In this document: positions 12,033 to 14,078 of the stretch, piece after piece
How positions within the stretch are numbered: position 1 is the first letter of the stretch
Layout of the letters: each line of letters opens with the position of its first letter
Source: a virus
Reading direction: 5' to 3' (one strand)
IMG/VR virus record: IMGVR_UViG_3300021255_001652
Coordinates: 1-48,714 of that record
Length of the DNA stretch: 48,714 nt
The notes under the pieces: generated by a model
Database searches by the model: none
The model's input: the letters and a program-made list of their open reading frames with translations, nothing else
Told to the model about the DNA's origin: nothing
Program-made: the position numbers and the translations under genes

Positions 12033-14078
12033 TTAAATGCTCTCAAGAAATTTTTGAATCTTTCCTGTAACAACAATATGCCCATTGTTATTTAGATGCG
12101 TTCCATCTGCGCTTTCAGAACTGACTTCCATCCAATACGTTGTATTTGTTGGTGGGATACCAGTAACACCATTTGCAAGGCATTTGTAAAGAATCCCACC
12201 AAACTTCATTTTATCGTCAAGGTTATAGGTTGTTGTGCTATCGTAGTTAGGATAACTGTCGCTTGACAAAGAATACTGAAGTCTGTGCGCCGCACAGCTT
12301 TTCATATTAAATCCCGCTGTTTTTCGCATATCAAAAAGCGGCACACCCCACTTTTCAAAAACAGCAATATAGTCATCAAACCACCCTGACGTCTGCCAAG
12401 AAATATACCAAGGGATAAAACCACCCACCCTGATCGGTTTCATAAGTGTAGTAAGATAACGCAATGTTTCTTCTATTGCGCCAATGGTAGTTGTGGTGTC
12501 AAAAACTGCCGTATATGAGTCACTTATTGCACCTTTGTTGCGGTTTGCCTGAGCCATATCATTTACACAGCATTCGATCAGCACGTAATCAATCAAAGTG
12601 TCTGAAGTAATATGCCGTTTAACACGCTCGACAACTGAGTCTGTTTTTCCTGTAGTAACCCTGTTGCAAGTGCCATCTTTCGCATAATTAGTGAACCGGG
12701 GAAAATCTACAGGAACATCATCAGGATTGCTGTCTGCACTATCGTGGACAAAAGCTTTGTACTGCATACCATAGGCGTCAGCGATTCTGCGGGCAAAGCC
12801 AACAATTCCACTTGTAGATGCAGCAGTAAGAGAATCCCCAAAAAACATAACAGCCTTATTTTTAAGAATACCATTGCAATAAGTATGGATTGTATTTATA
12901 TCGGATTCTATATCATCAATCTTTGAAAAAACTTTGAGATTACTAAATGTTACAACAGTAGTCGGGTCATTTAATGCCGAAAGAATTATATACTCTTCAT
13001 CTTCTACAGCAGTATATGTATATTCCGTTAGTTTGTTGTTTGTTATAACTTTAAGGGCAGTACCTGCACGATACCCAGCGGCAATTGTTACATCGAGTGA
13101 ATCTACTTTTGTTATAGCATTAAACAAATATGAACCGTCGCCTTTTGTCTTAATAGACACAGTTTCGTCTTTATAGAGAGTAAACGGTTTTGTGCATTTA
13201 TCACTAGCTTTTGTGGTAAAATTCCTACCGTTCACCATAAGACCTTCTACCCACTCAAAACTTATTTCATGCGTATAAAAGATTTCATTATAGCAAGCAG
13301 CAGTTTTGGGGGCATAATCATTTAAAAGATTTCGCAACGCAACCCCAATATTACTAAGTACATATACCTCGCCATCAAATTCTGAGGGAGTCAAACTAGC
13401 TTCATCGCTTTTTTTGCATTGTACAAACAAATTCCCATCAACAGGGATAGTGTAATAATAATCAGAACTAATTGTAGCCCATGTTTTATAGTCTGTTGTT
13501 GTTGTCGCACCTTCTTCATATATCCCATGTGCATACATCAAAGTGCTACCACTCTTAATGAGCAGAACATCACCCCGTTTTACGGGAATAAGAGTATTTA
13601 CACAAATCCTGTTATTTGTCGATGAAATAGACCTATTTGACCATATACCTTTTGTAAACATGGATGAGTTAAGTGACAATCTATACCCCTCATTTGCGTC
13701 ACTTATCACGCTCTTTAAATCACTAATTTCATCACCAGTTTTCTTGGCATCGGCAGCTGCTCCACTAATAGTAAGACTCGAATCTACGACAACAGCAGAG
13801 CCTACTGGATTTACATTTTGATTTAACCAACCGATAACTTCACTTTTTAAAGTGGAATTAACATAATTACTTAAATCAGTTGAATCTAGTTTTTGGTTAA
13901 ATAATTGAGTAAGCTGATCTTGAACAGAACCTTTTGTATCAAAAGCAATACTACCAAGGACTTCTACTAAAGAATGAGTATTATTCCATTCAACATTTTC
14001 AGCCAATGCACTAATAGGAATCTAATCAGAATAAGTGCCATCATCATATTTAATTTTTATGGCTGTTAATTTATCCAT
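12033..14078 (-). CDS. tail fibre/tailspike with C-terminal SGNH/GDSL esterase domain (GDSLT ... DGTHL blocks); one TAG at codon 19
   Basis: ORF track 12033..14006 (TTG internal start); frame continues upstream MDKLTAIKIKYDDGTYSD(TAG)IPISALAENVEW from ATG 14078 with RBS AAAGGAAAAAAG; body is clearly higher GC than the flanks; TAA stop. Confidence 0.75.

Follow-up and report, generated by a model that had tools for sequence, protein, structure and literature searches.

Several phage tail fibres carry an SGNH hydrolase as their distal domain. G7C gp63.1, Possum gp66 and the SGNH fibres of Klebsiella prophages deacetylate surface polysaccharide without depolymerising it, or are active p-nitrophenyl acetate esterases (PMC9569702; PMC13123978). 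In this work, we analysed a 48,714-nucleotide (nt) stretch of viral DNA (IMG/VR record IMGVR_UViG_3300021255_001652, positions 1 to 48,714; called the window below, at its full length) and, within it, the gene at 12033-14078. It is quite likely that this gene encodes a modular SGNH-esterase tail fibre with exchangeable cassettes, whose codon 19, an in-frame TAG, is read as glutamate (Glu). The protein resembles the fibres of E. coli phage G7C (gp63.1), Pectobacterium phage Possum (gp66) and Klebsiella prophages in combining a conserved virion-proximal N-terminus with a distal SGNH domain. Unlike those fibres, to which it has no detectable sequence relationship, it belongs to another anchor family, its host is probably a Gram-positive member of the Clostridia, it carries a CBM5/12-like loop within the catalytic domain, and its esterase activity is predicted.

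Lactococcal receptor-binding proteins (RBPs) are exchanged as modules behind a conserved N-terminal adaptor. Exchange of this kind is also described for the tailspike proteins of CBA120 and for Klebsiella and E. coli tailspikes (PMC10408124; PMC8825819). The present fibre is one more case of RBP shuffling, with one anchor, many C-terminal enzymes and a crossover at a conserved linker. Unlike in those modular proteins, a linker of about 55 nt is conserved here at the nucleotide level across phages of 31-52% GC, and could be of use in engineering cassette swaps, or in predicting them, in phages of gut and rumen. Exchange takes place here across a boundary between genetic codes as well: imported bodies remain free of TAG, the recoded codon, whereas resident genes do not.

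In the code-15 gut phages (crAss-like, Garnet, Topaz and phAss-1 among others), TAG is reassigned to glutamine (Gln) (10.1101/2021.08.26.457843; PMC10607447). As in those phages, TAG is concentrated here in structural, lysis and some other genes, and the number of TAG codons varies between close relatives; those phages encode a tRNA(CUA), which here is seen in relatives of the window. Unlike in them, TAG stands opposite Glu and the tRNA(CUA) of relatives is Glu-like; in addition, the prophage integrases of Garnet and Topaz avoid TAG, whereas the integrase here has a TAG ahead of its catalytic residues. A glutamate meaning of stop codons occurs in the nuclear code of peritrich ciliates (NCBI table 30), in which TAA and TAG both encode Glu. 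That code shares with the present case the reassignment of a stop codon to glutamate, but it is eukaryotic, nuclear, fixed and extends to TAA, whereas here TAG alone would be affected, most stops are TAA, and the infecting phage has to impose the change on a host that uses the standard code. In the literature searched, TAG in phages is reassigned to Gln only (10.1101/2021.08.26.457843; PMC11210395), and no report of TAG read as Glu was found. The comparison suggests that the fibre mosaic itself is ordinary and that the probable TAG-to-Glu code is the unusual part. If true, this code would mean that one stop codon has two meanings within one phage family and would provide a sister-clade pair for studying how the meaning of a codon changes. 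Synthetase-hijack models for recoding would need a second route, with glutamyl-tRNA synthetase instead of glutaminyl-tRNA synthetase, and thousands of database proteins would contain wrong residues, such as 'Q' at a RuvC-like catalytic Glu; annotation pipelines render a recoded TAG as Gln (table 15).

The fibre gene and its parts, with the GC content at third codon positions (GC3) and the predicted local distance difference test score (pLDDT) of an AlphaFold2 (AF2) model where these apply, are as follows.

12033-14078, minus strand: tail-fibre/receptor-binding esterase gene, complete, ATG 14076-14078, TAA 12033-12035, 681 sense codons
14088-14091, minus strand: Shine-Dalgarno-like AGGA, 9 nt 5' of the fibre ATG, read directly from the sequence
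14022-14024, minus strand: in-frame TAG at codon 19, the sole one in the fibre gene, a sense codon, most likely Glu
13713-14078, minus strand: N-terminal anchor, codons 1-122, GC3 0.156
13299-13712, minus strand: middle module 1, codons 123-260, beta-rich, family unassigned, no Pfam match, AF2 pLDDT 55-76
12870-13298, minus strand: middle module 2, codons 261-403, beta-sandwich, pLDDT about 90
12036-12869, minus strand: SGNH/GDSL hydrolase domain, codons 404-681, GC3 0.353, matching Pfam PF00657 and PHROG 5240, with invariant catalytic blocks and Foldseek support

The whole window is TAG-recoded. With TAG as a sense codon, fragments fuse to open reading frames (ORFs) of 2906, 1604, 1054, 743 and 678 amino acids (aa), the longest of which contains 36 TAGs; no such fusion is obtained in the window when TGA or TAA is read as sense, and TAA serves as the principal stop. 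Gene calling in the standard code restarts the fibre at codon 25 (TTG 14006) and yields a 657-aa product, P0001, which is this contig's own entry as annotated by ENA. No Shine-Dalgarno-like site lies ahead of this TTG, unlike ATG 14078. The residues flanking codon 19 are YDDGTYSD-x-IPISALAENVEWNNTHSLVEVLGSIAFDTK, and columns 1-21 of the anchor alignment are nearly invariant and continuous through that codon. Because the alignment of homologs starts at residue 1 and passes codon 19, we take ATG 14078 as the true start and residues 1-122 as the anchor. The integrase gene is two genes away, and baseplate-like genes are found nearby, beyond the integrase on the opposite flank. The source phage is a TAG-recoded phage of about 130-145 kb, with a host that is probably, and tentatively, placed in Clostridia, with Ruminococcaceae or Oscillospiraceae as candidates.

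A search of 5.8 billion protein clusters provided the matches discussed here, listed as the best 120 of 267. In about 95 of the matches listed, the alignment with the fibre begins at residue 1 and ends at about 115-145; identity over this part is 48-89%, and the sequences are wholly different beyond it. At least 10 kinds of Pfam domain stand behind the anchor, and the partner C-termini include Metallophos, GDPD, CotH, Lipase_GDSL_2, Beta_helix or pectate-lyase, Polysacc_deac_1, SASA, Exo_endo_phos, Peptidase_M14 and Big_2. From these alignments, the anchor appears to be a large unannotated family of about 95 alleles with at least 10 enzyme types; it has no signal peptide, two or three anchor-bearing paralogs occur per genome, and its AF2 monomer model is of low confidence (pLDDT 39-58). 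Two relatives syntenic around the locus, L005 and L007, carry GDPD and Metallophos bodies at this position. A further set of matches, P0002-P0023, shares only residues ~260-681 or 404-681 and has quite different N-termini. Among the matches listed, only P0001 holds anchor and body together, and P0003, aligned over query residues 94-679, covers the last ~29 anchor residues. Middle module 1 is common at the protein level only to P0003 and P0006 among these matches, and middle module 2 is present twice in P0002, P0007, P0008 and P0011. The two middle modules are taken as putative sugar-binding-like domains; a Pfam search of these domains at permissive E-values returned only noise, and phmmer with the fibre protein against the PDB gave nothing significant. 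In 50,697 deposited phage genomes, searched with megablast (15 kb) and tblastn (protein), no relative of the anchor was found and SGNH matches were weak (28-30% identity). A scan of GTDB genomes with the anchor recovered one short Ruminococcus contig and several linker-only matches, the latter in Clostridia metagenome-assembled genomes (MAGs), and the Ruminococcus contig likewise came from a MAG.

The place at which the bodies change, and the segment that changes, can be given at nucleotide level.

13710-13763, minus strand: junction motif GAAADAKKTGDEISDLKS, codons 106-123, a helix in the AF2 model, conserved at nucleotide level
11246-13712, minus strand: exchanged cassette, made up of the fibre body and a transglutaminase-like gene (11264-11935), without DNA homology in syntenic relatives

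Homology detected by blastn to six relatives (L005, L006, L007, L008, L009 and L010; the L005 and L006 contigs measure about 143 kb) extends from the upstream genes to 13709-13713, which is the end of codon 122. It restarts at 11245 in L005, before the integrase, or at 10164 in L007 and L008. Composition changes along the gene in the same order as the modules, with GC3 of 0.156 in codons 1-122, about 0.26 in codons 123-403 and 0.353 in codons 404-681, and the likelihood-ratio profile of GC3 has its maxima at codons 120 (7.07) and 426 (7.84), compared with 0.48 for codon 25. A second break lies near codon 404, where, relative to P0003, the SGNH domain is 81% identical and the domain before it 54%. 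Without the remaining anchor, the motif GAAADAKKTGDEISDLKS was found in over 60 IMG/VR contigs, as well as in MAGs of Clostridia, Ruminococcaceae and Lachnospiraceae. At the DNA level, 40-56 nt of the linker are kept at 87-93% identity in otherwise unrelated contigs, including the 52% GC siphophage L011, in which the linker retains rare codons such as TTA. This conservation suggests that the linker DNA most likely acts as the recombination substrate for cassette swaps. Since relatives keep the anchor and change enzymes, and the body is found behind other anchors, the locus appears from these comparisons to be a cassette-exchange site. Within the exchanged segment, the transglutaminase-core gene (11264-11935, minus strand), in which 3 of 223 codons are TAG, encodes an N-terminus resembling a signal peptide; it is low in GC and recoded, in contrast to the adjacent fibre body, though both lie in the same segment without homology.

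The original prediction had described the gene as a chimera of a recoded anchor of about 25 codons and a single standard-code SGNH body. A TAG-bearing N-terminus belonging to the lineage and an SGNH body of other composition are indeed joined, and codons 1-25 are AT-rich (GC 0.28) with a TAG at codon 19, but the anchor has 122 codons. GC3 is 0.144 in codons 26-122 against 0.20 in codons 1-25 (Fisher p = 0.54), so that a boundary near codon 25 is not supported; the junction could be located, at GAAADAKKTGDEISDLKS in codons 106-123. The body is likewise no single block, as it comprises at least two further modules with the second break near codon 404. The N-terminus and the body do not constantly co-occur: apart from the own entry, no listed match combines them. 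The SGNH blocks announced as GDSL ... DGTHL are present as FFGDSLT and DGTHLN, with catalytic residues invariant in 23/23 homologs. Body homologs in standard-code phages, also anticipated, were found in L002, L011 and L013; the proposal of a non-recoded donor holds as a shared gene pool, whereas a direct donor did not emerge (57-70% identity). The body is higher in GC and TAG-free, as had been stated, yet the absence of TAG is weak when taken alone, and a stretch with the same properties also exists at 14472-17253.

The relatives of the body outside this lineage are informative about its origin. P0003, from L011, is 57% identical over residues 94-679; its gene follows those of Dit and Tal immediately, in a siphophage module of HK97 type, and this position is the classical RBP slot. 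P0002 is encoded beside an integrase on a contig of 102 kb that also encodes a tape-measure protein of 1447 aa, and P0010, in L013, belongs to an SPP1-portal phage; other body homologs bear classical fibre N-termini. In the P0002, P0003 and P0010 loci, reading TAG as sense yields no long ORFs, and L002, L011 and L013 use the standard code. The GC content of the bodies (34-43%) is out of step with that of the resident genomes (32%, 52%, 41%, and 31% here), which is the pattern expected for a travelling cassette. These sequence comparisons support the view that the enzymatic body is drawn from a common gene pool shared with non-recoded phages. Two genes 3' of the P0010 fibre, L013 carries a reverse-transcriptase gene (14279-15421), which may belong to a diversity-generating retroelement acting on a neighbouring target.

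The absence of TAG from a single body was considered as stand-alone evidence and rejected. This body has 6 Gln and 24 Glu codons, and the probability of finding no TAG is 0.33 if TAG means Gln and 0.033 if it means Glu; the argument is strong only when four alleles are pooled. The closest anchor alleles, those of L008, L009 and L010, have TAG at codon 19 only and are followed by three different bodies. In the four TAG19 alleles together, no TAG occurs among 114 body Glu codons (P about 1e-7, with the baseline taken from resident late genes, in which TAG occupies 13.2% of Glu positions). TAG is also found at codon 19 of a distant paralog (L003, 1016 aa), and alleles without it have GAG, one mutation off. 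The fibre gene has a GC content of 0.37 and GC3 of 0.28, compared with 0.25-0.33 and 0.10-0.15 in most late genes. Another block of higher GC without TAG lies at 14472-17253 (minus strand; four or five genes, GC 0.35-0.42), with products rich in Gly, Asn and Cys that match only PHROGs 20016 and 16490, both without assigned function. Relatives keep this block at about 85% nucleotide identity, so that its composition, high in GC and free of TAG, does not point to recent import.

The meaning of TAG was approached through DNA-level alignment of the TAG-bearing genes of the window with relatives. The comparison of TAG with Glu and Gln codons covered the whole window and the loci L003-L007, L020-L026 and L100-L133. 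TAG sites of the window stand opposite GAA/GAG 56 times and opposite CAA 12 times, and in a larger set the counts are 121 and 33. When each of the 47 unique window sites is counted once by its majority residue, 27 are Glu, 7 Gln and 13 other. The per-site rate of TAG in relatives is 4.5-5% at Glu, 0.6-1.2% at Gln and at most 0.8% at the other tabulated residues, so that Glu sites exceed Gln sites 4- to 7-fold. The column of codon 19 contains E in 81 of 95 homologs and 'Q' in 11. All three of the 'Q' entries examined at the DNA level proved to be TAG, and other alleles have GAG; translation of TAG with code 15 probably accounts for all 11. L005 had been considered as a standard-code relative, given its TAG-free baseplate genes, but its RuvC-like gene contains four TAGs and it was rejected in this role as recoded.

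The RuvC-like resolvase gene (17524-18012, minus strand; Pfam RuvC, 23.1 bits versus 22.2) provides the densest example, with 5 TAGs in 162 codons, or 31% of its Glu-type positions; phmmer with this protein against the PDB returned nothing significant. In 120 homologs, all Glu columns mix E and 'Q', several of them without any other residue (column 62: E 84, Q 36; column 63: E 75, Q 45), so that 'Q' makes up 30-50% of Glu columns. In the Gln columns, E appears once in 479 cells; columns 80 and 112 are 100% Q, and columns 124 and 127 more than 90%. At the DNA level, columns 46, 62, 89, 95 and 119 hold GAA/GAG or TAG in family members, CAA/CAG is almost absent from the Glu/TAG-site columns (one CAA, column 19, L024), and TAG occurs only once at a true Gln column (column 127, L026). 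Columns 62-63 are TAG-TAG in L003 and L023, and column 62, which by analogy with E66 of E. coli RuvC we take to be the catalytic Glu, is TAG in L003, L023, L026 and L190.

A second line of evidence comes from the tRNAs of relatives, whose tRNA arrays, including tRNA(CUA), became visible in loci fetched through the vWA-like gene at the left end of the window and lie 1-10 kb upstream of that gene. L102 is collinear with window positions 1-9482 at 79-84% nucleotide identity and encodes a tRNA(CUA) about 10 kb past the left end of the window, with the sequence GGCCCCATAGTCAAGCGGTTTAAGACGGCTGACTCTAAATCAGCAGACGTCGGTTCGAATCCGACTGGGGTCCCCA; a tRNA(CUA) is also present in 11 further relatives. A Glu-versus-Gln tRNA classifier with the anticodon masked, correct in 31/31 leave-one-out trials on known phage tRNAs, assigned the tRNA(CUA) of L102, L106, L107/108, L125, L126, L129, L130 and L133 as Glu-like and that of L112/113 and L206 as Gln-like. 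Most of the Glu-like set has a D-arm of 17-18 nt, the Glu type, compared with 15-16 nt for Gln; the length of the variable loop does not discriminate Glu from Gln tRNAs, and raw nearest-neighbour typing of tRNA(CUA) was not decisive. The two groups differ in their alignments as well. In clade A, the ratio of Glu to Gln at TAG sites is 86:4 in L130, 37:2 in L133, 53:8 in L108 and 77:15 in L125, whereas in the sister clade (L111-L124) the ratio of Gln to Glu is 32:0 in L112, 37:1 in L116, 44:2 in L117 and 67:5 in L121. This clean Gln signal in a sister clade with a Gln-like tRNA is the decisive control for the alignment method. It is reasonably probable, on the basis of these sequences, that the clade has reassigned TAG to Glu through a tRNA(CUA) derived from tRNA-Glu and that the sister clade reads Gln. 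Alignments and tRNA evidence together indicate that TAG probably means Glu and not the conventional Gln. Two side observations concern this region: L126, a 133.9-kb contig, has at 5781-5855, some 1.3 kb away from its tRNA(CUA), a tRNA whose anticodon UUA would decode TAA; and the vWA-like gene (76-822) lies in a stretch (1-1000) of 41-46% GC, compared with 22-30% directly after it.

The catalytic part of the fibre contains the following elements.

12831-12833, minus strand: Ser416 codon, the block I nucleophile in FFGDSLT (residues 412-418), invariant in 23/23
12096-12107, minus strand: Asp658-His661 codons, block V DGTH, within DGTHLN (658-663), invariant in 23/23
12129-12245, minus strand: CBM5/12-like insertion, residues 612-650, between blocks III and V of the SGNH domain

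The match to Pfam PF00657 (Lipase_GDSL) over residues 410-669 is marginal (24.7 bits against a cut-off of 23.6), that to PF13472 falls under its threshold, and residues 403-607 match PHROG 5240, 'tail fiber protein'. G414, D415, S416 and L417 of block I, N506 of block III (CVND), and D658 and H661 are each invariant in the 23 body homologs; the stretch NYAKDGT (464-470) is conserved in the family consensus, and its placing as block II follows from position only. The insertion resembles a chitinase binding domain weakly: Pfam CBM_5_12 matches residues ~612-636 below threshold (E = 0.0034, 17.8 bits against a cut-off of 26.2), and PF02839 is precomputed on the homologs P0006, P0015 and P0021. 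The AF2 model has a mean pLDDT of 77 and values of roughly 80-96 across most of the SGNH domain. Foldseek relates it to the SGNH esterases 3dc7 and 7bxd (probability 1.0, TM(target) 0.73-0.76), to acetyl-xylan esterases with an N-terminal beta-sandwich, to the peptidoglycan O-acetylesterase Ape1 and to many phage GDSL proteins of 450-950 aa. By analogy with the SGNH fibres of G7C, Possum and Klebsiella prophages, the distal domain may deacetylate an acetylated wall polymer of a Gram-positive host.

A mechanism consistent with these features can be proposed. The anchor (residues 1-122, with its helical linker end) would dock a trimeric fibre on the baseplate, and the distal esterase would act at adsorption on a glycopolymer of the cell wall, removing O-acetyl groups or similar esters. 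Cassettes would be swapped behind the linker, with the anchor and the upstream genes staying in place. Full-length fibre would be made only when the phage tRNA(CUA) is active, so that TAG19 would act as a translational gate; because this codon lies in the conserved anchor, upstream of the exchange point, any swapped-in enzyme would depend on the phage suppressor tRNA.

The extent of the native part, the fate of codon 19 and the role of the protein could each be explained otherwise. It has to be considered that only codons ~1-25 are native and recoded, the rest being one imported non-recoded block with its junction just past the TAG, as the restart of the standard-code caller at TTG 14006 (P0001, 657 aa) and the AT-richness of codons 1-25 (GC 0.28) might indicate. 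This is very improbable, since residues 1-122 form one conserved unit in about 95 of the matches listed, the DNA homology of relatives is unbroken from upstream of the gene to codon 122, and codons 26-122 keep a GC3 of 0.144, with a likelihood ratio of 0.48 at codon 25 against 7.07 at codon 120. The same ENA annotation of 657 aa would fit a genuine stop at codon 19 and an anchorless, non-virion esterase made from TTG 14006. Such a product is hardly credible: AGGA precedes ATG 14078 and nothing like a Shine-Dalgarno site precedes the TTG, the product would lack the 24 residues that are most conserved in the family, the ATG-to-TAG19 layout is in frame in three other alleles and one paralog, and the window is demonstrably TAG-recoded. 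An enzyme of lysogenic conversion or cell-wall modification, whose N-terminus serves in secretion or wall targeting, would agree with the position two genes from the integrase, with the signal-peptide-like transglutaminase-family gene in the cassette and with an anchor that belongs to no recognised virion-protein family. We consider it improbable, because the SGNH region matches a tail-fibre PHROG, the full-body homolog P0003 occupies an RBP slot after Dit and Tal, other body homologs have classical fibre N-termini, the anchor is combined with a depolymerase-type toolbox and occurs in two or three paralogs per genome, it has no signal peptide, and large baseplate-like genes stand on the opposite flank.

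The remaining alternative accepts the mosaic fibre and holds that TAG means Gln (code 15), the excess of Glu being due to tolerated E-to-Q replacements. All recoded phages described to date were reported to read TAG as Gln (Borges et al. 10.1101/2021.08.26.457843; PMC11210395), 7/47 unique window sites stand opposite Gln, some clade-A loci have similar E and Q rates, and multi-class tRNA typing is not decisive. Even so, this sense is unlikely. It does not account for a per-site rate 4-7 times higher at Glu, for RuvC-like Glu columns that are 30-50% 'Q' beside Gln columns with E once in 479, for TAG at the putative catalytic Glu in four loci, or for a sister clade that, under the same analysis, gives a clean Gln signal (L112 32:0, L117 44:2) together with a Gln-like tRNA. 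In a weaker version, decoding of TAG would be ambiguous, with both Glu and Gln inserted, for instance by partial transamidation in a host with an indirect Gln pathway. Against the preferred explanation, a modular SGNH fibre with TAG19 read as Glu, several observations have to be set. About one fifth of the informative TAG sites stand opposite Gln, and in the clade-A loci L103, L106, L107 and L129 the per-site rates at Glu and Gln are similar; an earlier TAG-to-Gln stage, two suppressor tRNAs or ambiguous decoding are possible causes. No tRNA was found in the window or in the first 34 loci, and the tRNA evidence comes from relatives only. In a 20-class tRNA classifier, which is 78% accurate, Glu takes first or second place for most of these tRNAs, but only third place or below for those of L125, L129 and L133. 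The anchor has no Pfam relative, also at permissive E-values, and none in PHROG or the PDB; presence in the virion and trimeric assembly are presumed from sequence, esterase activity and its substrate are argued from analogy, and the gene adjoins the integrase area, a frequent site of lysogenic-conversion genes. As regards import, the closest bodies are 57-70% identical, with no close donor among the matches listed, and higher GC3 without TAG also occurs in the conserved genes at 14472-17253, so composition alone is no proof of foreign origin.

Several features of the surrounding DNA complete the description of the locus. Just 3' of the fibre stop, before the transglutaminase-like gene, there is one further element.

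11983-12015, no strand assigned: hairpin with a perfect 13-bp stem, with a T-run on the plus strand only and no gene reading into it from that side

A scan of the window for promoters and terminators gave no excess over shuffled expectation. The tyrosine integrase (10199-11200, minus strand) has its TAG at 10400-10402, codon 267, before the part with HxxR and the catalytic Tyr; in the standard code it would be a truncated 266-aa product, and the codon opposite this TAG in L005 is CAT (His). At 34847-37339 (plus strand), a TAG-free gene encodes an 830-aa protein without a PHROG match, whose Gln codons (25 CAG to 2 CAA) show a bias opposite to the genome-wide preference for CAA. Among the larger genes, TAG is densest in the endolysin gene (42028-43785, plus strand), which encodes glucosaminidase, amidase and binding domains and has 7 TAGs in frame; this agrees with the published proposal that recoding gates lysis genes.

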